DNA of 64,000 bases from a virus. Positions 5,439 through 64,000 of the stretch are shown piece by piece. The notes below the pieces were generated by a model. It was not told where the DNA came from. It was given only the letters and a program-made list of their open reading frames with translations, and did not search any database. Both the position numbers and the translations under genes were made by a program. Every line of letters begins with the position of its first letter. Position 1 is the stretch's first letter. The stretch covers positions 38,757 to 102,756 of IMG/VR virus record IMGVR_UViG_3300005466_000025; one strand, 5' to 3'.

Positions 5439-7394
5439 ATGCCAAGAAACAACGAGGAAGAACTAAATCCTGTATTTCGACTCAATAATGATACAGGACG
5501 ATGGGAACTTCAACCATTAAGTCCTGTTGAATATGAAATACAGATTGATTCGGAAGGAGAACAAGTGCCAGAAGTTCCAGAGGTAAACCCGGAACCGGAA
5601 ATCCTTAGTGTTCCAGTACCGACAATTGCCGGTCTATATTTCCAAAGTGAAACCGGAGGTAGAACACTTAGAAATACAAGAAGTACAGATGCAATTGTCC
5701 CCGGTTGTAGCGTTCAAGTTGGCGTTTGGGATAGACAGCCGGATGCAATTCGTCAGTCATATAGTCAGTTCAAACAGTGGGCAGTTGAAAATGGGTTTGG
5801 AGTAAGCTCAACAGCCCATGATTATTTCACGGAGAATGGATATCAAATCAATGTTGATTATTATTTCCTTCTCTGTGATATAAACGACCCCAATGCAATT
5901 GACATTGCTGGGATTATTTCTCAGCCTGATTGTTCCTGTGGAGAGGAACTTGATTATCCAACGGTAATGTGTCCCTCTTGTGACGCAAAAAATCACTGTG
6001 CCTCTTGTCGTAAGTTTTCCACAAACGTTCTATTTGATCCTAGTTGGGGAGACTATTGCGATGAGTGTGGGATTAATTGTGAGGAATGTGGATCAGCATG
6101 TCACTCACAAAATGGGGACTGTATCACATGTAATCCCCGTCAAAATTGTAATTCCTGCGGGGTTACAATGTATGAAAACAGGGACCACGTTAATGAATGG
6201 GCATTTGAGGAGGTCACAAGATATTTTTGTGACCCCTGTTTTCCTGGCCTATGTCATTCATGTGGGACTGTTTATGACGTTGAACAGATCATCATTGATG
6301 GCGATGTTCAGCAGTGTATTTCCTGTGTAAGTAAGAACAGCTTCGAAGAATGGGATGAGAATTCCCAGGATAGGAATATGCTGATTCCCACAATTCCAGG
6401 GCGGGAAACAATTCGTCTTGTTGGCGTGGAAATCGAAGGTGCCAATGGTGAAAACGTAAGTGGATTCGATGGTGGACACGCATTGGCTAGAGGCCTTTAT
6501 CAGGAAGGTCTGACGAGATATTCCGAAATGACTGGCTATCATAGTGGTAGCGGAAGTCGATCATATAGGGTTCACGTTGAGCGTGACTCAAGCGTGGATT
6601 GGGAAATGGTAATCGGGCCACTAAATGTGGCTGATGAGGAAGATGTACGACTCCTTAATAAGTCAGTAAGGGTTGTGCGTGGATTCATCAATAACAAAAC
6701 CCTTAAGCTGGATATGCGGGCAGGATTGCATATTCATGTTGGTGCCGATAGGGTTCCGTTTCCTAAGGCCTATAACCTCCATAAGCTCTATATGTATACG
6801 GAGGATTTCCTCTATCGATTGGGTGCAGCCAAGTGGCCCTATCATAGGTCTATTAATAGACGTGGAGGAAGGGATCAGGCTGGAAAAAGTCCAGTCGCAG
6901 AAGGGAAGCTAAACTTCGCCCAAACATTCTCGGGACAAAGGTATTATGGTCTGTCATTTGACAACTATTTTGCCCGGTATTTCGAGCATTGTGGGTGCGG
7001 GGCTAGAACATACGGATTGTTCGATGAATGCACTTGTGATCTAGGCAAGTGTACATTCGAATTTCGGCTGTTCAATACAACGGCAAATACGATCAAGCTG
7101 CACGCCTATCTTGCAATTTGTCAGGCGCTTGTGGCTAAGGCAATTGAGATGGATGAAATCACGGATTCAAGTCTGTTTCCGGCACTTGATTTCACCAAAA
7201 CAAGGGCATCGGATTTGCACCCCTCAACGCGAAGAAAGCTCGGACGTGAATGGGAGAAGAGGATCGTTTTCGTTAACGAGGAACTCCCGCTTACAACGGA
7301 GGAAAAGGCCTCAATTCACTATTGCATTATGAATAGTGAGATGGGGAAGATCGTGACGAATGCGGATATCCTACTACAGACGGAGGAAAACTAA
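5439..7394 (+). CDS. putative amidoligase paralog 3 with Cys-rich multi-zinc-ribbon N-terminal region
   Basis: GVEIE, DSSV.WEMV, GLHIHV, TFEFRLFN; about 10 CxxC pairs upstream. Confidence 0.85.
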   Translation: MPRNNEEELNPVFRLNNDTGRWELQPLSPVEYEIQIDSEGEQVPEVPEVNPEPEILSVPVPTIAGLYFQSETGGRTLRNTRSTDAIVPGCSVQVGVWDRQPDAIRQSYSQFKQWAVENGFGVSSTAHDYFTENGYQINVDYYFLLCDINDPNAIDIAGIISQPDCSCGEELDYPTVMCPSCDAKNHCASCRKFSTNVLFDPSWGDYCDECGINCEECGSACHSQNGDCITCNPRQNCNSCGVTMYENRDHVNEWAFEEVTRYFCDPCFPGLCHSCGTVYDVEQIIIDGDVQQCISCVSKNSFEEWDENSQDRNMLIPTIPGRETIRLVGVEIEGANGENVSGFDGGHALARGLYQEGLTRYSEMTGYHSGSGSRSYRVHVERDSSVDWEMVIGPLNVADEEDVRLLNKSVRVVRGFINNKTLKLDMRAGLHIHVGADRVPFPKAYNLHKLYMYTEDFLYRLGAAKWPYHRSINRRGGRDQAGKSPVAEGKLNFAQTFSGQRYYGLSFDNYFARYFEHCGCGARTYGLFDECTCDLGKCTFEFRLFNTTANTIKLHAYLAICQALVAKAIEMDEITDSSLFPALDFTKTRASDLHPSTRRKLGREWEKRIVFVNEELPLTTEEKASIHYCIMNSEMGKIVTNADILLQTEEN

Positions 7395-21845: not shown

Positions 21846-22396
21846 GCTTCTGAATCATATCCGTATAAGGTAGCGAAGGTCTTTAAAAATAAAATTTTTG
21901 ACTCCACAGGAGTAAGAGGGTTGATGGTATAGCTCAGCACAGGTTCCCCTTCATAATAATCAGGAGGTATGGAACCAAAGTCCCTCATCTCAGTGTGTCT
22001 TACAAGAAGATCAATCTCATGCACTTCCTCTGGCATTTCAAGGGGAATTCCAAACTTGGTGCAGATGGCACCCATAAGATGTTCCTCCACCTGTCGGTAG
22101 GATTCATACTGCGGCGTTGTCTTCAGCGGTGCTATGATATCCCCTATGTATGCCTCCGAGGCGTCATGCATGAGTGCCCATTTCTTTAATGGGTATGGAG
22201 CCTCCCATGAACAAATCACGGAGTGCTGTGCAACACTATAAAATTCCTTACACTGTCCACCATATCTGCACACATTTGACAGACCATGAGCGATATCCAA
22301 TATAGAAATATCATCGATGTTCGGGTCAAGCGGGTAGAATCTCTTGCCTGAGAAGGTACACATCGGCAAGATGGTGGCGGTTTCCATACCGTCCAT
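21827..22396 (-). CDS. HD-domain 5'-deoxynucleotidase (YfbR/YfdR-like), leaderless
   Basis: DIAHGLS..CRYGG, YSVAQHS, LMHDASEAYIGD. Confidence 0.85.
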   Translation of the reverse strand: MDGMETATILPMCTFSGKRFYPLDPNIDDISILDIAHGLSNVCRYGGQCKEFYSVAQHSVICSWEAPYPLKKWALMHDASEAYIGDIIAPLKTTPQYESYRQVEEHLMGAICTKFGIPLEMPEEVHEIDLLVRHTEMRDFGSIPPDYYEGEPVLSYTINPLTPVESKILFLKTFATLYGYDSEAWRYFA

Positions 22397-45281: not shown

Positions 45282-45620
45282 GGGGCCGAACAGGTTTCGA
45301 CGGATAGACGGAGTGAACAGTTTGCATCGGTTTGAGACACCTTAATCTCACGGTAGAAAATAAATGCAGATAATACATCTGACCTGACTGTTTCTAAGTC
45401 TCGCTTCGGCGCAGCATTTAGAACCGCAACAGTCGCAGTCGCTTAACACTGGTCAACACAAGTTAAGCTGGCGCTCCCGGAAACGGGGCAAAGAAATACT
45501 CTTTCTTAGTTTAAGACGAAACTAAGTGGTGGACCTGATCGCACCAACGGTCGCCCCCAAGATGCTCAAAGAATTGTTTGCAAAGCTAGACGGACCCGAG
45601 TTCGATTCTCGGCGGCTCCA
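45282..45620 (+). ncRNA. ssrA: tmRNA
   Basis: 5' GGGGCCGAACAGGTTTCGAC; 3' T-arm CCGAGTTCGATTCTCGG + CGGCTCCA; G3:U70; resume context ATAAAT-GCA; tag ADNTSDLTVSKSRFGAAFRTATVAVA* at 45366-45446; TGATATACT promoter upstream. Confidence 0.92.
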
Positions 45621-55018: not shown

Positions 55019-55100
55019 GCGCGAGTGGTGGAACGGTATACACACTAGGCTTAGAACCTAGCGCCCTCCGGGATTGTGGGTTCGACTCCCACCTTGCGTA
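55019..55100 (+). tRNA. tRNA-Leu(UAG)
   Basis: cloverleaf, CTAGG-CTTAGAA-CCTAG. Confidence 0.9.
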
Positions 55101-55105
55101 CTTAT

Positions 55106-55179
55106 GCCCCTCTAACCCAATTGGTAGAGGTATCCGGTTTAAGCCCGGTCAAGTGAGAGTTCGAATCTCTCGGGGGGTA
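55106..55179 (+). tRNA. tRNA-Leu(UAA), short variable arm
   Basis: cloverleaf, 74 nt. Confidence 0.9.
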
Positions 55180-55184
55180 CTAAT

Positions 55185-55268
55185 GTCGATCTGGTGAAAT
55201 AGGTAGACACGCTAGCTTGAGGGGCTAGTTCCAGAAATGGAGTGCGGGTTCGACTCCCGCGTTCGACA
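55185..55268 (+). tRNA. tRNA-Leu(GAG)
   Basis: CTAGC-TTGAGGG-GCTAG, long variable arm. Confidence 0.9.
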
Positions 55269-55375
55269 CTATGAAATTAATGACGTTACAGCAAGCACAA
55301 GCTATGAAAATTGCAGAATTTAATTCCCTTTTTAAGGACGTAATTTTCACAGCAAAACGCGGCGGAATTAAATTT

Positions 55376-55453
55376 GCATCTTAGCCCAAGGTGGGCACGG
55401 TGGCTGTAACCCACCCGTCTAAGACATGGTAGGTTCGATTCCTACAGGATGCA
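55376..55453 (+). tRNA. tRNA-Tyr(GUA)
   Basis: GGTGG-CTGTAAC-CCACC. Confidence 0.85.
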
Positions 55454-55461
55454 CTTAAATT

Positions 55462-55857
55462 ATGAAGAATAACATCATCATCCTCACGCTTGTTGGAATA
55501 ATTGGATTGATGGCTGTTATCACAGTTTATTCCCTGACAAGTAAGACGGAAAAGGCACCAAAGGTTGCCAGGATAACAACATCATCAACCACAAGGGAAA
55601 TTAATAAGTTCTTTAGCAATGCGAGTGTTGAAGTTGTATCTAATCAAGTTGTTTGGAGTCTTAACAAGACTGATCTATTGGAGGAGACGGCATATGCGGC
55701 GGCTCGGGCGGATACTAAGGTGGAGAAGATTGGCTTTAGGAAATACTTTTTGTCCCAAGGCGGTGTAATCTATAGACAAGTGTGCTATAATCTACATGCG
55801 TTTGATGAGGCATGGTCGCTAGGATATTGTGTACATAGGAATATAGAGAAGGGTTAG
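55462..55857 (+). CDS. membrane-anchored hypothetical protein
   Basis: N-terminal TM. Confidence 0.6.
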   Translation: MKNNIIILTLVGIIGLMAVITVYSLTSKTEKAPKVARITTSSTTREINKFFSNASVEVVSNQVVWSLNKTDLLEETAYAAARADTKVEKIGFRKYFLSQGGVIYRQVCYNLHAFDEAWSLGYCVHRNIEKG

Positions 55858-55859
55858 AA

Positions 55860-55922
55860 ATGGAATTCGGTCTGTTGGGTCTTATATTACTTATCATCAT
55901 TATCGTTTTAATTGTAAGATAA
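55860..55922 (+). CDS. 20-aa hydrophobic peptide MEFGLLGLILLIIIIVLIVR
   Basis: GAAGGG RBS, single TM. Confidence 0.4.
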   Translation: MEFGLLGLILLIIIIVLIVR

Positions 55923-55925
55923 CAC

Positions 55926-56013
55926 GGAATGGCAAGCCGATGGTTGGCGACGGCACTCCCCTGCTAAGGGAGCGAGCTTAAAAGCCTTGTGGGATCGTTC
56001 CCCACCCTTTCCG
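55926..56013 (+). tRNA. tRNA-Ser(GCU)
   Basis: CTCCC-CTGCTAA-GGGAG, long arm, atypical T-loop. Confidence 0.85.
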
Positions 56014-56016
56014 CTC

Positions 56017-56367
56017 ATGAGAAGAATATTAGATAATATAGCCATCATATTCTTGGTGATTGTTGTCACAGGTGGCTTTATCTATTCCTTATATCAGGGT
56101 TTCTTTGAGGATACAGGGGCGAGGGCCAGATTGGCTATCTCAAATAATATCAAATCCTGTCAGGATAACATAGCCAAGGCCGTTGTGTTTGAGCAGTTCG
56201 CTAGGGAGGCCGCAGCCGCCAGACGTGCCCAGGCTGCCGCTGATTTTAAAGCGGGAGATGAAATCTCAGCCAAGAATAATCTTGCCACGGCGGAACGCTA
56301 TGAGTCCTTCGCTCATCAATGGGATGTATTGACAGTTAAGGACTGTCGTAAGGAATACGGAGGCTAG
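56017..56367 (+). CDS. membrane-anchored hypothetical protein
   Basis: ATG just after the tRNA; TM + two Cys like the 24832/25166 proteins. Confidence 0.6.
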   Translation: MRRILDNIAIIFLVIVVTGGFIYSLYQGFFEDTGARARLAISNNIKSCQDNIAKAVVFEQFAREAAAARRAQAAADFKAGDEISAKNNLATAERYESFAHQWDVLTVKDCRKEYGG

Positions 56368-56411
56368 TAAGGATTTTGTAAGGCCCTCTTTTTTTGTGCT
56401 ATACTCCTATC

Positions 56412-56822
56412 ATGATACGACTGAGAAGCGAGAAGGGACAGGGCGATGTTGGTTTCGTCCTCGCAATCGGATTCGTTGCAGTCATTGTTCTTGTAGGTTT
56501 TGTTACCCTTCTATTTGGAGCTAAGGCTTATTCCAGATATCAGAAGAGGGCTGACGCCGAAAACCAAGTTAAGGTGACGGCAATTCAGATCAGGAACCAG
56601 GAACAGCGAGTCAAGATTGCACAGCAGAAGGCGCAGATTAGATATCAGGAGGCAATTGGTATTCGTCGCGCCCAGGATGAAATTGCAAAGACCCTGAATA
56701 GAAACTATCTTACACACGAATATATTCAGGCTCTTAGGGAATCACATGCAACAACTGTTTATATCCCGACTAGCCCGACAGATGGACTTCCCGTTGTAAC
56801 AACAAGAAACGCAGGAGACTAA
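56412..56822 (+). CDS. membrane protein, SPFH/band-7 C-terminal-like, leaderless
   Basis: TM, EAIGIRRAQ..I..TL...YL, VYIPT..GLPV. Confidence 0.65.
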   Translation: MIRLRSEKGQGDVGFVLAIGFVAVIVLVGFVTLLFGAKAYSRYQKRADAENQVKVTAIQIRNQEQRVKIAQQKAQIRYQEAIGIRRAQDEIAKTLNRNYLTHEYIQALRESHATTVYIPTSPTDGLPVVTTRNAGD

Positions 56823-56827
56823 ACAGC

Positions 56828-56850
56828 AAGGCCCCCTTCCGGGGGCCTTA
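56828..56850 (+). terminator. GC hairpin terminator
   Basis: AAGGCCCCC-TTCC-GGGGGCCTT. Confidence 0.6.
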
Positions 56851-56904
56851 ACTGTCGCGGGATGAGCTACCAAAAGCATTATACCAATATGGTATAATGA
56901 TTAT

Positions 56905-57900
56905 GTGAGATTAACCGTAGGAAGTTTGTTTAGTGGATGTGGCGGATTAGATTTGGGAATGGAAAGGGCTGGATTCGACACCATATGGATGTGCGAAAAC
57001 GACAAATGGTGCAGGAAGATTCTGAACAAGAATTGGCCTGGTATTCACTTATACGAAGACGCGAATACGTTCATGCCAGACTCGGTAGACATATTGATTG
57101 GTGGATTCCCGTGTCAGCCAGTGTCATTCGCAGGGAGAAGAAATGGAGTTGATGATCCTAAATGGCTATGGCCCGCTTATGAAAGAACCATTCGCAATCT
57201 TCGACCCAGATACGTTATCGTGGAAAACGTACCCGGACTCTTCAGACACGGATTCGATGAAGTTCTCGGATCGTTGGCCCTACAGGGGTATAATGCTGAA
57301 TGGTTCAGTCTACAATCTTCAGACATTGGAGCGCCCCACAGACGAAAAAGAGTTTTTATTCTTGCTACCAACTCCGGTAGCCTGGGACTCAGGAAGGACA
57401 ACAAAGGCCCATCTGGCAAACAAGGCAAAGCTAGGGGAAGGGAGAAAAATGATTACTTCCCTCAACGTCTTAGTGAGGAATCAATTTCAGCAGCCGCTCT
57501 TGCCGACACCGTTAGTGGACGATTCAAAAAACGGCAAAAGGGGTGGGAGTTACAACTCATTGAGTCGGAGCGTGATTCTGTTGCCAACTCCGACAGCAAA
57601 TATGAGTACAGGGCCGGGAGGATTCAAGGTACGCGGGGGCAAGAATTTGCAGACAGCGATTTCGGAAATTACGCAGAGGCTATTAGACGATGGTCTGAAC
57701 TCAATGGACTCCCTCCCGCCCCAAGAGACGAGCAAGGAAGAATGAGTCCCTACTTCGTTGAATGGATGATGGGATTCCCTGAGGGATGGACAGAAGGTGT
57801 ATCGAAAACACAGCGGCTAAAAATGCTAGGTAATAGTGTTCAGGTTCAATGCGCCCAGGTTGCAGGGAACCTCATAAGAGAGAAGGTTAAGAATGAGTAA
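56905..57900 (+). CDS. DNA cytosine-5 methyltransferase
   Basis: motif I SLFSGCGG, IV GGFPCQ, VI ENV, VIII RKRVF, X LGNSV. Confidence 0.92.
   Translation: MRLTVGSLFSGCGGLDLGMERAGFDTIWMCENDKWCRKILNKNWPGIHLYEDANTFMPDSVDILIGGFPCQPVSFAGRRNGVDDPKWLWPAYERTIRNLRPRYVIVENVPGLFRHGFDEVLGSLALQGYNAEWFSLQSSDIGAPHRRKRVFILATNSGSLGLRKDNKGPSGKQGKARGREKNDYFPQRLSEESISAAALADTVSGRFKKRQKGWELQLIESERDSVANSDSKYEYRAGRIQGTRGQEFADSDFGNYAEAIRRWSELNGLPPAPRDEQGRMSPYFVEWMMGFPEGWTEGVSKTQRLKMLGNSVQVQCAQVAGNLIREKVKNE
57143..57745 (+). CDS. alternative-frame ORF nested in the methyltransferase (LLPTP repeats)
   Basis: 200 codons open in the +1 frame, GGGAG RBS, SWKT..WP..G.M.NG and three LLPTP units. Confidence 0.65.
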   Translation: MELMILNGYGPLMKEPFAIFDPDTLSWKTYPDSSDTDSMKFSDRWPYRGIMLNGSVYNLQTLERPTDEKEFLFLLPTPVAWDSGRTTKAHLANKAKLGEGRKMITSLNVLVRNQFQQPLLPTPLVDDSKNGKRGGSYNSLSRSVILLPTPTANMSTGPGGFKVRGGKNLQTAISEITQRLLDDGLNSMDSLPPQETSKEE

Positions 57901-58126
57901 ACAATTTCTAACAATCGGGGAGGTTTCAAAACAAGTTGGTAGAGTATCCCACACCATAAGACAGTGGGAGAGGGACGGCCGTCTGCCTCCAAGACTTCTT
58001 CCCTCAAGGGATGAGAATGGATGGAGGGTTTGGACGGTAGATCAGGTTGAGGAACTAAAGGTTTGGATAGAGAAGGAGGACCTTCGCCCAGGCAAGGCAC
58101 TTCCATACAATAATAAGGAGAAATAA
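57893..58126 (+). CDS. MerR-family HTH protein
   Basis: LTIGEVSKQVG..TIRQWERDG...RDENGWR. Confidence 0.85.
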   Translation: MSKQFLTIGEVSKQVGRVSHTIRQWERDGRLPPRLLPSRDENGWRVWTVDQVEELKVWIEKEDLRPGKALPYNNKEK

Positions 58127-58354
58127 ATGAGTAGCAGCACAACAACTGCTAGTTCAGGAGTGAGTCTAGGGTTTCTTGAATTCCTGACGCTCATCTTCAT
58201 TACCCTAAAACTAACTGGTTATATTGACTGGTCATGGTGGTGGGTTCTGTCTCCACTGTGGGCACAGCTAGTTGTCTTTGTAATCGCCCTTATAACAGTT
58301 CTGTTGTATGCGGCTGGAAGTATCAAGAGAGGAAAAGCAGATGGCATCAGATGA
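58127..58354 (+). CDS. small membrane protein
   Basis: FITLKLTGYIDWSWWWVLSPLW, a common phage membrane motif. Confidence 0.75.
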   Translation: MSSSTTTASSGVSLGFLEFLTLIFITLKLTGYIDWSWWWVLSPLWAQLVVFVIALITVLLYAAGSIKRGKADGIR

Positions 58355-58556
58355 GGCACTAGATACATTCACATTCACAGTTGAGGAGAAAATTGGACTT
58401 AAGGATTATTCAAACATCCTAGTTCGGGCCTCCCTGTCCAGACAGATTCCCGACGATGAGGATGCACGCAAGGATGTTATCAATATCGTGGAGAATATTC
58501 TGGTAATGGAGCGTCGTATTGTCCTAGAGGACCTAGGGGTAGAAGTAAAGTCTTAG
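58341..58556 (+). CDS. hypothetical protein
   Basis: GAGGA RBS. Confidence 0.55.
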   Translation: MASDEALDTFTFTVEEKIGLKDYSNILVRASLSRQIPDDEDARKDVINIVENILVMERRIVLEDLGVEVKS

Positions 58557-58599
58557 TAAAGTCGCCCCACAGGGGCAGAATCTTTGCTATAGTTCTTGG

Positions 58600-58672
58600 T
58601 GCGCGTTGGAGAAGCGGTTACCTCGCAAGCTTCATAAGCTTGAGAACCCTGGTTCGAATCCAGGACGCGCTA
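58600..58672 (+). tRNA. tRNA-Met(CAU), initiator-like
   Basis: 1:72 mismatch, A11:U24, but lacks the three G-C anticodon pairs. Confidence 0.8.
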
Positions 58673-58673
58673 C

Positions 58674-58703
58674 TTGACAAGGGACGGTGAAGTATGCTAC
58701 ACT
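58674..58703 (+). promoter_or_regulatory. sigma70/SigA-type promoter for the main tRNA array
   Basis: TTGACA-N18-TACACT with extended TG. Confidence 0.7.
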
Positions 58704-58754
58704 TTGTCGAAATGGGGATACGTCCCCGAGAAACTTGACAACTTAGTAGGTCAT

Positions 58755-58828
58755 CTGGATGTAGGAAAGCTTGGCAATCCGTCTGCTTTGGGAGCAGAAG
58801 ACCGCTGGTTCGAATCCAGCCATCCGGA
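58755..58828 (+). tRNA. tRNA-Pro(UGG)
   Basis: cloverleaf, G37. Confidence 0.9.
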
Positions 58829-58945
58829 CTGTTGCGACTAATCTAGATACGTCGCAATCGTGAGTGGTGACCCGTTAATTCACCACCGTTACCCAATAGG
58901 CGTTGTATTGGGGGTGCCCCCGCCTACCAAAATGTGGGGTATTAT

Positions 58946-59020
58946 CTGGGTGTAGCTCAGCTTGGTCAGAGTAATCGCCTTGGACGCGAGAAGTCGCAGG
59001 TTCGAATCCTGCTGCCCAGA
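58946..59020 (+). tRNA. tRNA-Pro(UGG), A37 variant
   Basis: cloverleaf, loop CTTGGAC. Confidence 0.85.
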
Positions 59021-59025
59021 CTGGA

Positions 59026-59071
59026 AGCAACTGTGTGGATACGTAAAAGTGTTGCTGAAAGTAAGTCCACA
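59026..59071 (+). ncRNA. nested-pseudoknot spacer RNA, copy 1
   Basis: P1 AGCAAC/GTTGCT, P2 TGTGGAT/GTCCACA, P3 AC/GT. Confidence 0.5.
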
Positions 59072-59075
59072 ACCC

Positions 59076-59151
59076 GATGGTATAGTGAAGTCAGGCCTAT
59101 CACGTCTCCCTGTCAAGGAGAAGAACACGGGTTCGAATCCCGTTATCATCG
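59076..59151 (+). tRNA. tRNA-Asp(GUC)
   Basis: cloverleaf. Confidence 0.9.
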
Positions 59152-59220
59152 CTAAAGAGAGTCCCTTCGATCCCTGGACGGACGCGCGCCTAGAGGTAAG
59201 ACGCAATACTCTCTTAACTA

Positions 59221-59292
59221 GCAGCAATAATTCAGTGGTAGAATGTCTGCTTGCCAAGCAGAATGTCGTGAGTTCGAATCTCACTTGTTGCT
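59221..59292 (+). tRNA. tRNA-Gly(GCC)
   Basis: cloverleaf. Confidence 0.9.
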
Positions 59293-59375
59293 CTTATCTG
59301 CCTAAGTCAGTCCTCGGCGTATGGCGAGAGGAATATGGGAGCCTGGAACCCATAGGTAAAAAATGCACGGCAAAT

Positions 59376-59447
59376 GAGTCGGAAGTATCTGGTGATATCC
59401 CTGGGCTGTGACTCCGGGCGGGTAGGGTTCGATCCCCTAACGACTCT
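59376..59447 (+). tRNA. tRNA-His(GUG), atypical
   Basis: GTG anticodon and T-arm present; no clear G-1:C73. Confidence 0.6.
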
Positions 59448-59517
59448 TAGTGGTTCATGCCTTGCCTGCAAGGGCGGAAAGAACGGATACTACAAGGCCC
59501 GTCACCACTAATTTTAA

Positions 59518-59590
59518 GCTTCCTTATTGTTAATGGTTAGCAAACGTGCCTTCCAAGCATGGAGTGTCAGTTCAAATCTGACAGGAAGCT
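59518..59590 (+). tRNA. tRNA-Gly(UCC)
   Basis: cloverleaf. Confidence 0.85.
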
Positions 59591-59595
59591 CTCAA

Positions 59596-59668
59596 GTCTC
59601 TATAGCTCAGTGGAAAAGAGCAACGGGTTTCTACCCCGTGAGCCTAGGTTCGAATCCTAGTAGGGACT
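59596..59668 (+). tRNA. tRNA-Arg(UCU)
   Basis: cloverleaf. Confidence 0.9.
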
Positions 59669-59791
59669 CTGTGAATAAGATTCGGCGCAGGGCGTACCTT
59701 GGCGCGGCAACAGAACAAGTGCGGGACTTACCGGGAAGTACAAGCAACTAGGCGAGACGGCGCTGAACGGGAGAAAGTCCCTCCCAAATAT

Positions 59792-59866
59792 GGAACATTA
59801 GCTAAAATGGACAAAGGCACCTGGCTCTTAACCAGGAGATTCTAGGTTCGATCCCTAGATGTTCCA
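59792..59866 (+). tRNA. tRNA-Lys(CUU)
   Basis: cloverleaf. Confidence 0.9.
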
Positions 59867-59868
59867 CT

Positions 59869-59966
59869 TTATTAACTCCCTGGATGGGTATCTGGCTCGA
59901 AACCAGTGTAATAAGAAATGGTGTTCTCCGCGGAACGTAGAGAGTTCGATTCTCTCCGGTTGATAA
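59869..59966 (+). ncRNA. tRNA-like RNA, CGA (Ser) loop, abnormal D and variable regions
   Basis: terminal stem, CTGG-CTCGAAA-CCAG, canonical T-arm GAGAG-TTCGATT-CTCTC. Confidence 0.55.
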
Positions 59967-59971
59967 AACTT

Positions 59972-60045
59972 GCCCCTCTAGCCCAATTGGCAGAGGCACG
60001 GCACTCAAAACGCCGACAGTCTGAGTTCGAATCTCAGGTGGGGTA
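59972..60045 (+). tRNA. tRNA-Leu(CAA), short variable arm
   Basis: cloverleaf, 74 nt. Confidence 0.9.
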
Positions 60046-60047
60046 CT

Positions 60048-60299
60048 ATGAAACACCTAATGAAATTTGAAGCTGATTGGTGTGGCCCATGTCATGCCAT
60101 TAGACCGCTAGTTGAAAAGATTGCGGATGAGAATGAACTAGATATAGTGGTGGTTGATATTGATAAGGACAGTGACGTTGCCACCCTGTATGGAGTCGCC
60201 TCAATTCCAACAATCATTTTGATTGAGGATGGTTCAGAAGTAGCAAGGCATATTGGTTCCGCGCCAAAATCCACAATAGAAAAGAACTTGAATTTATAG
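60048..60299 (+). CDS. trxA: thioredoxin
   Basis: WCGPC, SIPT. Confidence 0.92.
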   Translation: MKHLMKFEADWCGPCHAIRPLVEKIADENELDIVVVDIDKDSDVATLYGVASIPTIILIEDGSEVARHIGSAPKSTIEKNLNL

Positions 60300-60374
60300 A
60301 CTAGTACGCCCTCTGGCTGATAACCAGTTGAAAGGCTATGCGGATACAAAATGGTTCGAATCCATTCTAGTCTA
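60298..60374 (+). ncRNA. D-armless tRNA-Ile(GAU)-like RNA
   Basis: AGACTAG/CTAGTCT acceptor, CTGG-CTGATAA-CCAG, T-arm; only 8 nt where the D-arm should be. Confidence 0.65.
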
Positions 60375-60450
60375 CTGGGTAAGGAATTTGTTAAAAAGGG
60401 TCGATTCCCACCCCAAACTTGAAATCTTGTGCTATAATCCTTAGCACACA

Positions 60451-60587
60451 AGGGGAGATATGGGTTAAACTGTATCTTCCCACCATGCCTCTCACAGTCT
60501 TACGGCTGTCAGAGGCTCCTGGCCCCCAGTACCCTAACGGGGAAAAGGGCAGCCTGGAAGGAGAGGGGTAAAAGCCTCTCCTTCCCC
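60451..60587 (+). ncRNA. unknown multi-hairpin RNA downstream of a TGCTATAAT promoter
   Basis: GGGAGATAT/GTATCTTCC, GCCTCT..ACAGTC/GGCTGT..AGAGGC, GGAAGGAGAGG/CCTCTCCTTCC. Confidence 0.45.
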
Positions 60588-60594
60588 CAAACTT

Positions 60595-60667
60595 AGGCAA
60601 TTAGCTCAGCCGGGAGAGCGCCGTTCTTACAAATCGGAGGCCGGGGGATCGAAGCCCTCATTGCCTA
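60595..60667 (+). tRNA. tRNA-Val(UAC)
   Basis: cloverleaf, T-loop ATCGAAG. Confidence 0.85.
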
Positions 60668-60671
60668 TCAA

Positions 60672-60743
60672 GTCAAAGTGACCGAGCGGATAGGTATGAG
60701 TCTGCAAAACTCATTCACGCTGGTTCGAATCCAGTCTTTGACT
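60672..60743 (+). tRNA. tRNA-Cys(GCA)
   Basis: cloverleaf, U73. Confidence 0.9.
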
Positions 60744-60776
60744 CTTCCTTTTCCTAGGATAAAAAGGAGGTACCAT

Positions 60777-60869
60777 ATGACAGCAATTAAACCAGGAAAG
60801 CTTTCGACACTTACTGTCGCCTGGACTCCGACCTGGACCGCTAATTGGTCGCCAGTCTGGTCAATGTAA
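60777..60869 (+). CDS. 30-aa Trp-periodic peptide
   Basis: AAAGGAGGT RBS; MTAIKPGKLSTLTVAWTPTWTANWSPVWSM. Confidence 0.6.
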   Translation: MTAIKPGKLSTLTVAWTPTWTANWSPVWSM

Positions 60870-60960
60870 GTCAAGAGATGGGTTAGGTATTTTCTAGATA
60901 AATCCAGCATTCAAGGCCGCGCCTTTGCCTAACGAGGGAAGTAAAATGCGGTCAATAAAT

Positions 60961-61032
60961 GGGGCTGTAAGCTAATCAGGAAACTACCTGCTTTGCACGC
61001 AGGAATACGGGGAGCATAACCCCGCCGCTCCA
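60961..61032 (+). tRNA. tRNA-Ala(UGC)
   Basis: G3:U70, TGC anticodon, atypical T-loop AGCATAA. Confidence 0.8.
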
Positions 61033-61033
61033 C

Positions 61034-61086
61034 TCCCTTCAAGTAGAGATACCAAGTGATCATGGTGAGGGAAACTAAAGTCTCTA
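61034..61086 (+). ncRNA. nested-pseudoknot spacer RNA, copy 2
   Basis: P1 TCCCTT/GAGGGA, P2 TAGAGAT/GTCTCTA, P3 ACCA/TGGT. Confidence 0.55.
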
Positions 61087-61091
61087 TACAT

Positions 61092-61163
61092 TCCAGCTTG
61101 GCGCAAAGGTAGCGCAATCGGCTGTTAACCGAGAGGTTCTAGGTTCGAATCCTAGAGTTGGAG
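61092..61163 (+). tRNA. tRNA-Asn(GUU)
   Basis: cloverleaf. Confidence 0.9.
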
Positions 61164-61235
61164 CTAGCGGAGGGGCATATGGACAGACTCCGTATGTTAA
61201 ATGAGGGGCGTATCGCCCCCGCCCCAATGCCACAT

Positions 61236-61307
61236 TCCTCAGTAGCTTAGTAGTAGAGCAGCAGTCTCATAAGCTGTAAGGCAATGGTGCAACTCCATTC
61301 TGAGGGA
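61236..61307 (+). tRNA. tRNA-Met/Ile2(CAU)
   Basis: GCAGT-CTCATAA-GCTGT. Confidence 0.8.
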
Positions 61308-61341
61308 CTATATTGAACCACAGCTTGTGTTATAATATAGC

Positions 61342-61650
61342 ATGAGCAAGCAGGCAGAATATTCGTCTAAATGGTACAATAATAATAAGCAGTTGCAGAA
61401 GCAAAGAGTTGACAGTAGAAGAAGGGAAATGACCCAATTTCTGTTCTCTCTAAAGAAAAATAAGAAGTGTGCGTTCTGTTCAGAGAGTGAGCCAGCTTGT
61501 CTAGACTGGCATCACACTAGAGATAAGATCGTAGATGTAAGTCAGATTCCAAAGATGGGTTGGGGTAAGGAGAAAGCATTAGAAGAAATTTCAAAGTGCA
61601 TTCTTGTTTGCGCCAACTGTCACAGGAAACTACACGCCGGATTAGTTTAA
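61342..61650 (+). CDS. HNH endonuclease, leaderless
   Basis: CAFC..CLDWHH..KCILVCANCHRKLH; last codons overlap tRNA-Thr. Confidence 0.85.
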   Translation: MSKQAEYSSKWYNNNKQLQKQRVDSRRREMTQFLFSLKKNKKCAFCSESEPACLDWHHTRDKIVDVSQIPKMGWGKEKALEEISKCILVCANCHRKLHAGLV

Positions 61651-61707
61651 CTGGTAAAACACGACTCTTGTAAAGTTGTGAACAGGGTTCAAGTCCTTGA
61701 TTCGGCT
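61636..61707 (+). tRNA. tRNA-Thr(UGU)
   Basis: GCCGGAT/ATTCGGC, CGACT-CTTGTAA-AGTTG. Confidence 0.85.
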
Positions 61708-61708
61708 T

Positions 61709-61732
61709 AGGGTTCGATTCCTAGACGTGGCT
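61709..61732 (+). pseudogene. orphan tRNA 3' fragment (T-arm + acceptor strand)
   Basis: GGTTCGATTCCTAG-ACGTGGC-T. Confidence 0.55.
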
Positions 61733-61827
61733 CTTATGCTATAATGTTCCCTTAGGCTCCTAGCTCCTAAAATTGGACGTGAGCCTACGCGCAGGTAAAG
61801 GCATGGCGTAACAGATGCCTTGTGTTT

Positions 61828-61901
61828 GCACCTTGGCAGGCCGGTTGTTTGGAGGTATCTTATAAGTATCTTTAAGCTTGGTTCGACTCCAAGAGGGTGT
61901 A
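61828..61901 (+). tRNA. tRNA-Ile(UAU)
   Basis: GCACCTT/AGGGTGT, GGTAT-CTTATAA-GTATC, canonical T-arm. Confidence 0.75.
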
Positions 61902-61904
61902 TAA

Positions 61905-62072
61905 ATGGAATATACAAAAACACAGTGGGAGTCATTCCCGACAACAAAGGATGCGGAAGTTATTTCATGCCAGTATTGTGAGAACGAAACTGTTGTGAAA
62001 GCTAACAAATTCGTAACACGGTACACATGTCCTACGTGCTATAGTGTACCTAAGTTAAGCAAGCGCAAGTAA
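61905..62072 (+). CDS. 55-aa zinc-ribbon protein
   Basis: CQYC...CPTC. Confidence 0.55.
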   Translation: MEYTKTQWESFPTTKDAEVISCQYCENETVVKANKFVTRYTCPTCYSVPKLSKRK

Positions 62073-62075
62073 CAT

Positions 62076-62146
62076 GGCCCTATCGTCTAATGGTAGGACG
62101 GGTGCCTTTCAAGCATCTAACCGGGGATCGTAACCCCGTAGGGCTA
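62076..62146 (+). tRNA. tRNA-Glu(UUC)
   Basis: cloverleaf, T-loop ATCGTAA. Confidence 0.85.
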
Positions 62147-62150
62147 CTAA

Positions 62151-62222
62151 CGCTCATTAGCTCAACGGAAAGAGCATTGGTCTTCGAAACCAAGAGTGAA
62201 GGTTCGATTCCTTCATGGGCGT
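62151..62222 (+). tRNA. tRNA-Arg(UCG)
   Basis: TTGGT-CTTCGAA-ACCAA. Confidence 0.85.
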
Positions 62223-62377
62223 CTGGCAGGAAGTCACATTTAAGTTGAAGTGACTGATAGTAGATGAAGATGGAAGATGGAGGTAGAAGTAGTACAGTCG
62301 TAGTTCTGCATCATCGACTTCCTGCCAATTTGTTTGGTGGACCGGGACTCCTGGGTAAGAGTAAAAACTGCCCAATA

Positions 62378-62449
62378 TCCTCCGTAGCGTACTGGCAGCG
62401 CACACGCCTTTTAAGCGACGAGGACAGGGTTCGATTCCCTGCGGGGGGA
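62378..62449 (+). tRNA. tRNA-Lys(UUU)
   Basis: cloverleaf with a weak anticodon stem. Confidence 0.8.
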
Positions 62450-62450
62450 C

Positions 62451-62503
62451 TGGCGAAGGTGTCGTTCGAATCGACTATGGTGTAACCTGGAAGCACATCG
62501 CCA
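62451..62503 (+). ncRNA. circularly permuted tRNA-elbow mimic (T-arm before D-arm, Y-RNA/YrlA-like)
   Basis: TGGCGA/TCGCCA closing stem; GTCG-TTCGAAT-CGAC; GTGT-AACCTGGAA-GCAC. Confidence 0.6.
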
Positions 62504-62578
62504 TGAATCCATGCGACGGCATGGGGGTACCAGGGTATCTGGTTGTTCGTCGGGGTCAACCTTAATCAATCCGACCAT

Positions 62579-62650
62579 TTCTCAGTCGTCTAATTGGCAG
62601 GACAGCGGACTTTGAATCCGCGAATCTGGGTTCGAATCCTAGCAGAGAAA
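62579..62650 (+). tRNA. tRNA-Gln(UUG)
   Basis: cloverleaf. Confidence 0.9.
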
Positions 62651-62717
62651 CTACACCCCTCCGAATGGGTCATAGACTAGTCCGGCTACCCCTGAAATAG
62701 AGCCGGGAGGGGATCAA

Positions 62718-62790
62718 TGCTTCTTAGCTCAGAGGATAGAGCGCGTCCCTGCGAAGGACGAGGCCATAGGTTCGATTCCTATAGGGGCAA
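62718..62790 (+). tRNA. tRNA-Arg(GCG)
   Basis: CGTCC-CTGCGAA-GGACG. Confidence 0.85.
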
Positions 62791-62791
62791 T

Positions 62792-62995
62792 ATGATAATT
62801 AAATTAGGACCAATAGTGATTATGGATTCCAAGACAAGGGAGGCCTATAGGGAACTCCTAACAGAGGCATATTTGGTTCATCAAAATATTTGGTTTTCAC
62901 AGGATTGGGCGCAATCTGAGCAGGAAATTAAGAATGCAGATTCCCATCTTTCTGAAGCAATTTCACATGTACCAGCAAGTGAATTAGAAATTTAG
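62792..62995 (+). CDS. hypothetical protein
   Basis: ATG 2 nt after the tRNA, 67 aa. Confidence 0.5.
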   Translation: MIIKLGPIVIMDSKTREAYRELLTEAYLVHQNIWFSQDWAQSEQEIKNADSHLSEAISHVPASELEI

Positions 62996-63348
62996 AGTGG
63001 AAGACTTGTGCGGCGGAATTCCAACACCGTCGAGGAAGTTCGGGCCACATGAATGCGCTAGACTTGCGAGGAGGCGCAGGAAACGAGCAGAAAAAGTGGG
63101 AGCGGTCGTAAGCTAACGATGGGAAACCGGGAGAAATAGCTGGCCGCGCCTTACCACAAATTCGTCGGTGTGTAACCTCAAGACGCCCTTAGTCTAAGGG
63201 GCATGGTAGAGGGCAGCTAATAATTTAGCCATATGGAGTCATAGTGTCCCTTCTCTACGAAGGTGGTAAGCCCTGAGGTCACGTACAGGCGCTCCATATG
63301 AGACAGATGCAAGTCCACGACAGAATCCCGGCTACGAAACTCTAAATT
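62989..63348 (+). ncRNA. rnpB: RNase P RNA (ribozyme)
   Basis: P1 AATTTAGAGT/ACTCTAAATT; P2 GACTTGT/GCAAGTC; P3; CR-I GAGGAAGTTCGGGC; P4 pairing with CCCGGCT; L15 GGT; CR-IV AGACAGATG; CR-V ACAGAATCCCGGCTA. Confidence 0.88.
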
Positions 63349-63399
63349 AACAAAATATTGACCTACTAAGTTGAAATTTGTGTTATAGTAATCAAACAC

Positions 63400-63470
63400 A
63401 GGCTGTTGGTGTAACAGCAGCATGAACGGCTCCAACCCGTTTGGCGAGGGTGCAAATCCTTCACGGCCTG
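63400..63470 (+). tRNA. tRNA-Trp(CCA)
   Basis: cloverleaf, G73; promoter TGTTATAGT upstream. Confidence 0.85.
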
Positions 63471-63510
63471 CTAGTCCTTGGCCCCCGGACTTTTAAAATA
63501 GGGGCAACAT

Positions 63511-63584
63511 GTTGATGTAGCTCAGCTAGGTAGAGCATTCGGTTGAAGCCCGCAAGGTCACAGGTTCGAGTCCTGTCGTCAACA
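63511..63584 (+). tRNA. tRNA-Phe(GAA)
   Basis: cloverleaf, G37. Confidence 0.9.
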
Positions 63585-63589
63585 CTCTT

Positions 63590-63662
63590 GTTCCATTGGT
63601 CTAACGGTCAGGACGCCGCCCTCTCAAGGCGGAGGCTATGGGTTCGAATCCCATATGGAATA
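63590..63662 (+). tRNA. tRNA-Glu(CUC)
   Basis: cloverleaf. Confidence 0.9.
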
Positions 63663-63671
63663 TGAGGCAAG

Positions 63672-63743
63672 TAGGTTGTGGTGTAATGGTTAGCACACCG
63701 GGGTTTGACCCGGAGGAGCCGCGTTCGAATCGGGTCAGCCGAA
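63672..63743 (+). tRNA. degenerate tRNA (UUG-like, 6-nt anticodon loop)
   Basis: D-arm and T-loop intact; CCGGG-GTTTGA-CCCGG; mismatches in acceptor and T stems. Confidence 0.5.
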
Positions 63744-63809
63744 AGCTTCAACTAAAAGAGTAAATTTCGGGATTTAACTACTCTTTCAAAAAACTTTTAA
63801 ATCCCACTT

Positions 63810-63881
63810 TCCACAGTCGTCTAACGGGTAGGACGCTGGACTCTGAATCCAGTAATCTAGGTTCGAATCCTAGTAGTGGAG
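63810..63881 (+). tRNA. tRNA-Gln(CUG)
   Basis: CTGGA-CTCTGAA-TCCAG. Confidence 0.9.
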
Positions 63882-63907
63882 CTAACAGCCGGATGAATGT
63901 AAGTAAT

Positions 63908-63934
63908 AAGGTCCCTTCGGGGGCCTTTTTTGTT
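63908..63934 (+). terminator. rho-independent terminator ending the tRNA array
   Basis: AAGGTCCC-TTCG-GGGGCCTT + T run. Confidence 0.85.
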
Positions 63935-63967
63935 ATCCTTTTAGTGAGCTACTGAAAGGAGGCAAAC

Positions 63968-64000
63968 ATGGCTGTAGAGCTATCACTAGATAGAAAGGCA
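63968..64000 (+). CDS. start of next gene (truncated by the window edge)
   Basis: GAAAGGAGG RBS + ATG. Confidence 0.5.
   Translation, partial: MAVELSLDRKA

Follow-up and report, generated by a model that had tools for sequence, protein, structure and literature searches.

An RNase P RNA homologue with a remodelled architecture in the tRNA array of a soil phage

RNase P RNA is considered a ribozyme common to all cells. Bacterial P RNAs require their protein in vivo, and this protein, RnpA, contacts the RNA at J18/2, J2/4 and P15. The elbow of the tRNA is normally read by P13/P14 and CR-III of the specificity domain (S-domain). An S-domain that is lost or reduced beside a retained catalytic core is known from the type T RNA of Pyrobaculum (RF02357) and similar RNAs. 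A search of full-text literature, in which few subscription journals are covered, found no published RNase P RNA encoded by a phage or other virus. Here we describe an RNase P RNA-like gene located in a 64-kb stretch of phage DNA (the window). Judged from its sequence, the identity of the element at 62989-63348 (+) as a genuine RNase P RNA homologue is secure. The first-pass annotation of the window had proposed a phage-encoded RNase P RNA of remodelled architecture, and this proposal was borne out by a complete phage genome, a chain of homology to the Rfam model of type A RNA (RF00010) and a covarying catalytic core.

The window is the final 64 kb of an IMG/VR record of 102,756 bp. The first 100 bases of this record are identical to its last 100, so that the assembly closes on itself. 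The record, which encodes a cytosine methyltransferase and a tape-measure protein as well as a primase and a large DNA polymerase, is the complete genome of a tailed phage from soil. The RNA genes of the window comprise one tmRNA and 31-32 tRNA genes. RnpA, which the first-pass annotation had not seen in the window, was found to be absent from the entire complete 102.8-kb genome (PF00825), and many of the phage ORFs are without a known family. A search of 62400-64000 for sigma-70-like promoters was negative, a weakly informative result as the promoter type of the host may differ; this result and the terminator past the last tRNA fit an element that is co-transcribed with the array. The phage tmRNA is at 45282-45620 (+) of the window (Rfam 65 bits; ARAGORN tag peptide ADNTSDLTVSKSRFGAAFRTATVAVA), and the tmRNA of kin phages is likewise located upstream of the DNA polymerase (L192 7703-8038, L193 5501-5818 and L194 6944-7323). 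A tRNA-like gene at 63672-63743 has an irregular anticodon loop and is given no identity by ARAGORN.

A canonical T-loop (UUCRANY) was detected in 26 of 31 tRNAs, and variant T-loops in the other five (Ser-GCU, Val-UAC, Met at 61236, Glu-UUC and Trp-CCA). The first-pass annotation had overstated the non-canonical T-loops as 'many', and its suggestion that the RNA is tuned to such tRNAs is unsupported, as nothing ties the changes in the S-domain to the five variants. The 3'-CCA is encoded by none of the 31 tRNA genes; thus, a contact between the GGU of L15 and CCA would be possible only once CCA has been added.

The element was analyzed for homology by use of motif searches, Rfam models and BLAST. 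The 18-nt J2/4-P4 string CACGACAGAAUCCCGGCU (63316-63333) is present in a single copy in the window, whereas 100 shuffles yielded no copy; it is one inserted U apart from the J2/4-P4 string of E. coli M1 RNA. The Rfam RNase P models gave no gathering-score match in the window (the threshold of RF00010 is 100 bits), all 4227 Rfam families, including type B (RF00011), archaeal and type T, gave no match of E<=10 on 62790-63400 (611 nt), and RF00010 run over the whole genome left the element unmatched. The first-pass annotation had named such a covariance-model comparison as a means of refuting its proposal; the negative outcome is read here as insensitivity of the model. RF00010 also failed to see the elements of the two closest kin (contigs L340 and L401), and the less altered element of a third (L192) was matched. 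Thus, the Rfam miss is a sensitivity failure for this subclade and not counter-evidence to homology. A single-sequence minimum free energy fold of the element was no better than shuffles (z = -0.74).

Homology to RNase P RNA was concluded from a chain of significant matches that ends at RF00010. By BLAST (3.6-Mb database), the window matched L340 over 246 nt at 71.5% (E 4e-25) and over a further 47 nt at 96% (E 8e-15), and L340 in turn matched L192 (E 4e-7). L192 then matched RF00010 (RNaseP_bact_a) at 71.6 bits (E 6e-22), in an alignment that covers P1-P5, P15, L15, J18/2 and P4 and leaves the entire S-domain unaligned.

The kin were identified by several routes. A metagenome scan with a string extending from J18/2 to P4 detected the contigs L340 and L396, whose RNA is the same, and L401 was detected by a genome scan. 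L192 was found through its DNA polymerase (58% identical); it has the same tmRNA-polymerase-tRNA synteny, and its RNase P RNA lies between tRNAs. The RNA of L340/L396 occupies the slot between tRNA-Arg(GCG) and tRNA-Trp as in the window, with an identical order of tRNAs. When the window was compared to L396, the RNA was found to be 72-96% identical and the flanking spacers unalignable. MAFFT misaligned L192 and L401 (422-458 columns). A search for relatives through a tail-region protein (L191:727-2880) found none. The RNase P gene of L192 is oriented opposite to a Leu/Tyr/Ser tRNA block, and a perfect TTGACA-17-TATAAT promoter is present between this RNA and the next tRNA (~22250-22300, -). 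L401 (JANMDL010000311.1) is a 1.66-kb contig with two tRNAs that was binned into a Chitinophagales MAG, in which an ordinary RNase P RNA (240 bits) is present on a different contig; L401 is probably mis-binned phage DNA or a pointer to the host group.

Table 1. Features of the RNase P RNA-like element and its surroundings (window coordinates).
Feature	Position	Strand	Basis or detail
tRNA array	55019-63882		RNase P-like RNA embedded within
tRNA-Arg(GCG)	62718..62790	+	upstream neighbour of the RNase P-like RNA
RNase P RNA-like gene, ~360 nt	62989..63348	+	helix map, homology chain, RNA-library contigs
P1	62989..62998 with 63339-63348	+	10/10 pairs; sequence differs yet pairs in L340, L192, L401
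P2	63003..63009 with 63309-63315	+	7 bp; GGAAUAU/GUAUUCC in L192, CUCUAC/GUAGAG in L401
P3 hairpin, CGGCGG/CCGUCG	63011..63032 (strands 63011-63016/63027-63032)	+	10-nt loop
CR-I/J3-4 and P4 5' strand, AGGAAG(U)UCGGG	63033..63044	+	bulged U63039
P5, CACA/UGUG	63046..63049 with 63169-63172	+	
Single S-domain hairpin in place of P7-P9 cruciform	63054..63078	+	consensus fold
P10/11-like helix, 5' strand within GGAAACGAGCAGAAAAAG (CR-II-like)	63084..63092 with 63161-63167	+	7 pairs
P12	63096..63157	+	P12a GUGG/CCAC, internal loop, P12b GCGGUC/GGCCGC (63102-07/63142-47), distal fold 63108-63141
P15, P16-like hairpin (63185-63202) and L15 GGU (63205-63207)	63176..63212	+	Rfam aligns L192 equivalent to P15/L15
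P18-like hairpin, GCUAA-UAAU-UUAGC	63216..63229	+	same place in 4/4 kin, sequences differ
Extra helix P18' (CAUAUGGAG/CUCCAUAUG) bearing module A (63239-63291)	63230..63300	+	
J18/2 (AGACAGAUG, CR-IV-like), P2 3' strand, J2/4 (CACGACAGAAU, CR-V)	63301..63326	+	
P4 3' strand, CCCGGCU	63327..63333	+	pairs with 63037-63044 around bulged U
tRNA-Trp(CCA)	63400..63471	+	downstream neighbour of the RNase P-like RNA
Intrinsic terminator	63908..63927	+	3' of the final tRNA of the array

The helices of the catalytic domain were re-derived, and P1, P2, P3, P4 with its bulged U, P15 and the GGU of L15 were recovered where the first-pass annotation had placed them. The P4 feature of type A, a helix of CR-I and CR-V with a bulged U, is found in the window, where A63037 pairs with U63333, G63038 with C63332 and U63040 through G63044 with G63331 through C63327. 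The type-A internal loop of P15 with its GGU for the tRNA 3'-CCA is likewise found (P15 strands CCUC, 63176-79, and GAGG, 63209-12). P3 is CGGAGG/CCUUCG in L192, where both strands are altered and still pair, and P5 has four complementary versions in four kin (CACA/UGUG, CAUC/GAUG, CACC/GGUG and CACG/CGUG). P15 covaries (UCUC/GAGA in L192), the P16 stem has a different sequence in each of the four kin, and 7 of the 14 pairs of P15 and P16 were found to change on both sides. For eight hand-chosen helices (P1, P2, P3, P4, P5, P15, P18-like and P18') compared across four distinct kin, 184/184 cells pair, and just 34-44% pair in a slid control in which the 3' partners were moved by 1-3 positions. 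Changes relative to the window numbered 27 that occur on both sides and keep pairing and four on one side. No P6/P17 pseudoknot was identifiable in the window.

The unusual CR-I pointed out in the first-pass annotation was verified to read GAGGAAGUUCGGG. The Rfam consensus is GAGGAAAGUCCGGG for CR-I, AGAugAAUG for CR-IV and ACAGAACCCGGCUUA for CR-V, compared to GAGGAA-GUUCGGG, AGACAGAUG and ACAGAAUCCCGGCU-A in the window, and the L192 counterpart of J18/2-J2/4 is aligned by Rfam to AGAugAAUG ... ACAGAA. The CR-I variant is also present in five phage RNase P RNAs validated by Rfam (L009, L031, L056, L080 and L129). The CR-I and CR-V variants of the window both recur in phage RNAs that are above the Rfam threshold. 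A small hairpin had been described as extra and as preceding P18. The hairpin is real (63216-63229), and by its position it is the better equivalent of P18 itself. The 9-bp helix CAUAUGGAG/CUCCAUAUG that had been called P18-like, with an insertion of ~53 nt, is also present (63230-38/63292-63300, 53 nt enclosed), as an additional element that we label P18'.

The S-domain had been considered hard to map, and we found that type A and type B both fail to fit. A type-A S-domain contains a P7-P8-P9-P10 cruciform, P11-P14, CR-II and CR-III; by contrast, only a hairpin, a P10/11-like helix and P12 were detected in the window, and P13/P14 and CR-III were not found. The RNAalifold consensus of the S-domain consists of P5, one hairpin, the P10/11-like helix, P12a and P12b. 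The hairpin changes on both sides among kin in 4 of its 5 pairs, the P10/11-like helix covaries in 1 of 7 pairs (A-U, G-U, U-A), and P12a and P12b covary in three kin. The distal fold of P12 is without the module that kin carry there. The sequence GGAAACGAGCAGAAAAAG resembles the Rfam type-A consensus GGAaAGugCcACAGAAA, and the CR-II-like string GGAAACGAGCAGAAA, also present, resembles the type-A consensus. The first-pass annotation had drawn a P7 at 63049-54/63160-65. These strands pair in the window, but the 5' strand is missing from L192, and this helix was rejected for the P10/11-like pairing, in which the consensus fold joins AUUCG to the C-GAA of GCAGAA. In three sequences, the same from which the structure was derived, 93.7% of S-domain cells were found to pair (slid control 36-49%) and 13/27 pairs to change on both sides, and 0/500 shuffles equalled the observed values.

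The module enclosed by P18', termed module A, has the consensus GGAG-UCAUAG..GUAAGCCCUGAGGU..CGUACAGGCG-CUCC and is located on P12 in L340 and L192. The window at 63235-63295 (61 nt) is identical to the P12 module of L340 at 47/62 positions, ~11 sd above shuffles, and BLAST of module A against L340 gave an out-of-order match at 94% (E 1e-6). The P12 tip of the window weakly resembles the L192 module (z about 2.3), in its 5' half only. Module A itself covaries in its closing stem and inner stems and may form a pseudoknot. The P18' site serves as an expansion point: in L192 it is a 4-bp mini-hairpin, and in L340 (2508-2611, -) and L401 (949-1037, +) it carries another conserved module, with the order stem, UACGAAC, hairpin, ..ACGU..AAAAG, stem and both-side changes in 9/17 predicted pairs. 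Within the subclade, module A is at P18' in the window only. This arrangement is not an assembly error: two RNA-library contigs and one DNA contig obtained independently extend across it and show no differences. A tentative explanation, somewhat doubtful to us, is that module A is a self-contained tertiary or substrate-reading unit that was transplanted with its closing stem from P12 to P18', after which the P12 copy degenerated. If true, this would be a case of natural module shuffling inside a ribozyme, and RNase P would work even with an elbow-reading or bracing element on its other domain.

Several assignments and matches were rejected in the course of this analysis. An equivalence of P18' to the P19 of type B was tried; P19 is not named in the publication consulted, so the provisional label was kept. 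Matches to the module motif CTGAGGTCRCGTACAG in viral contigs (L273-L276) and to the P15 pattern (L400) were found to be due to chance, as they are in coding sequence with no CR-I/CR-V nearby; L402 and L403 were chance matches as well.

A phage lineage wider than the four kin was detected in IMG/VR. A scan with the J2/4-P4 string revealed two huge-phage contigs, L009 (332 kb) and L010 (360 kb), with tRNA arrays that contain RF00010 matches of 189 and 118 bits, respectively. L009 has the CR-I GAGGAAGUUCGGG and CR-V ACAGAAUCCCGGCUA of the window exactly, and its BLASTN match is a Salmonella 'RNA component of RNase P'. When the elements of the window, L340 and L009 were compared by BLASTN to deposited phage genomes, no phage match was obtained and Salmonella rnpB was the sole match. 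Scans with both CR variants gave 177 further loci. Both exact motifs, 139-573 nt apart, were present in 35 elements (34 loci and the window), and both motifs with <=2 mismatches in 57 loci in viral contigs, 48 of which are <=600 nt from a tRNA gene. Of 17 lineage elements tested, five passed the Rfam threshold (158-168 bits; L056, L129, L080 and L031 are in this range) and 12 failed. Thus, the phage RNase P RNA lineage grades from clear type A to Rfam-invisible forms.

Other forms were observed in these scans. The RF00010 match of L010 (11470-12119, -) extends over 650 nt and is interrupted by an insertion of ~350 nt with an HNH-like ORF (...CANCHRKEH...), which may be a homing endonuclease or intron within the ribozyme gene. 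Two Rfam-invisible phage RNase P-like RNAs, L184 (~5440-5830, +) and L044 (~350-660, -), have a tRNA-like segment at the position of the S-domain; this segment resembles the 3' half of a tRNA, with a GGUUCGAAUCCC T-arm, an acceptor strand and then CCACCA. Miniature forms with 139-185 nt from CR-I to CR-V (L189, L106, L164, L063, L167, L174, L014, L180, L187, L188, L370 and others) are located in phage tRNA arrays and have essentially no S-domain.

Metagenome and metatranscriptome data of rhizosphere origin were also compared with the element. The stretch was contained in at least 15 rhizosphere metagenome runs. The element was detected in three metatranscriptome assemblies from three rhizosphere studies, as one short contig each, with 100% identity over 63002-63331 (330 nt), 63005-63331 (327 nt) and 62948-63254 (307 nt), contigs that amount neither to proof of transcription nor to a definition of the RNA ends. 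Two of these contigs stop at the same base (63331), and an independent DNA contig continues past it; the shared end hints weakly at a discrete RNA. The flanks at 62800-62947 and 63352-63500 are outside the RNA-library contigs, a gap that carries no evidential weight.

Taken together, these results make it rather probable that the element is the phage's own RNase P RNA gene, encoding an active ribozyme that would use host RnpA and mature the phage tRNAs with which it is co-transcribed. From the homology, the covarying core, the presence in RNA libraries and the lack of a phage rnpA, we infer catalytic activity and the borrowing of host RnpA, together with phage pre-tRNA substrates and co-transcription. 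The RNA would be transcribed as part of the tRNA array, and the processed RNA of ~360 nt would fold into a catalytic domain like that of bacterial type A, with the GGU of L15 predicted to bind the tRNA 3'-CCA and the bulged U of P4 to bind metal. Of the S-domain, only P12, a P10/11-like helix and a single hairpin would remain, and the conserved 53-nt module would be relocated from P12 to the extra helix beside P18. The RNA would most likely recruit the RnpA of the host, as the phage is without an RnpA gene, and the ribozyme would then cleave the 5' leaders of 32 tightly packed phage pre-tRNAs and so supplement or replace host RNase P during infection.

The strong reduction and rearrangement of the elbow-reading S-domain could also be explained if an RNase P-derived fold had taken on another job. 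Such an RNA might be a decoy that ties up host RnpA, so that the maturation of host tRNAs is starved, or it might act on other substrates such as the spacers of the array. The regions that RnpA contacts in known RNAs are the best conserved in the element, and the lack of a phage rnpA is also consistent with a decoy. By contrast, a pure protein sponge would need none of the bulged U in P4, the J3/4 adenosines, the GGU of L15 and ACAGAA, all of which are kept under covariation, and the location of 48/57 lineage members in tRNA arrays points to tRNA processing. We thus consider a function other than tRNA maturation unlikely. That the genome encodes no RnpA homologue would also fit with an active RNase P RNA that dispenses with host RnpA, working alone or with an unrecognised phage protein cofactor. 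The peripheral modules of P12 and P18' could stabilise the fold as proteins do, and ORFs of no known family are many in this phage. The sole ORF that adjoins the element (67 aa, 62792-62995) was nevertheless rejected as a cofactor, as its product is acidic (pI 4.8) and it lacks both a ribosome-binding site and a homologue in the kin. The general requirement of bacterial P RNAs for protein in vivo also argues against independence from host RnpA, which appears quite improbable.

The failure of Rfam to recognise the element and the indels in its conserved regions would be expected of a captured host rnpB that is decaying as a non-functional relic. By contrast, compensatory changes maintain the helices across the four kin, the CR-I/CR-V variants are common to dozens of phage contigs, and the element is present in three RNA libraries. 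Covariation, together with conservation of the RNA in L396 relative to flanks that are unalignable, leads us to disfavour decay, which we regard as very improbable.

Particular to this locus are a full-size, Rfam-invisible subclade, a reduced S-domain, the P18' expansion site and a module with two alternative attachment points. Through such copies of RNase P RNA, phages that have a large set of tRNAs would also bring their own catalyst of tRNA maturation, which bears on the escape of phages from host shut-off or tRNA-directed defences. As the subclade is invisible to Rfam, such genes are missed by current annotation pipelines. The variants (reduced S-domain, P18' expansion, two-site module and miniatures) constitute a natural experiment on the requirements of RNase P RNA.

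Compared to type A RNA (E. coli M1 RNA/rnpB; RF00010), the element is similar in P1, P2, P3, P4 with the bulged U and P5, in P15 with the GGU of L15, the enclosed P16 hairpin and the P18-like hairpin, and in J18/2 (AGAnnGAUG), J2/4 (ACAGAA), the CR-II-like GGAAACGAGCAGAAA and a length of ~360 nt. It differs from type A in that the window itself is unmatched by the model, CR-I is one A short of the universal GAGGAAAG and has a C-to-U change, P4 has U-G for C-G, and J2/4 has an extra U. It differs further in one hairpin for the P7-P9 cruciform, the absence of P13/P14 and CR-III, the extra helix P18' with its 53-nt module, and its location in a phage genome with no rnpA. Like other IMG/VR phage RNase P RNAs (L009, L056 and L129), the element has the CR-I/CR-V variants GAGGAAGUUCGGG and ACAGAAUCCCGGCUA and is inside a tRNA array, whereas the Rfam-recognised phage RNAs keep a type-A S-domain. 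The members of its subclade (window, L340/L396, L401 and L192) are full-size, unlike the miniatures, and are distinct in their reduced S-domain and the P18' expansion site. A reduced S-domain with a retained catalytic core is shared with Pyrobaculum type T; unlike type T, the element has no Rfam match and keeps P10/11, P12 and a bacterial-type P15/L15.
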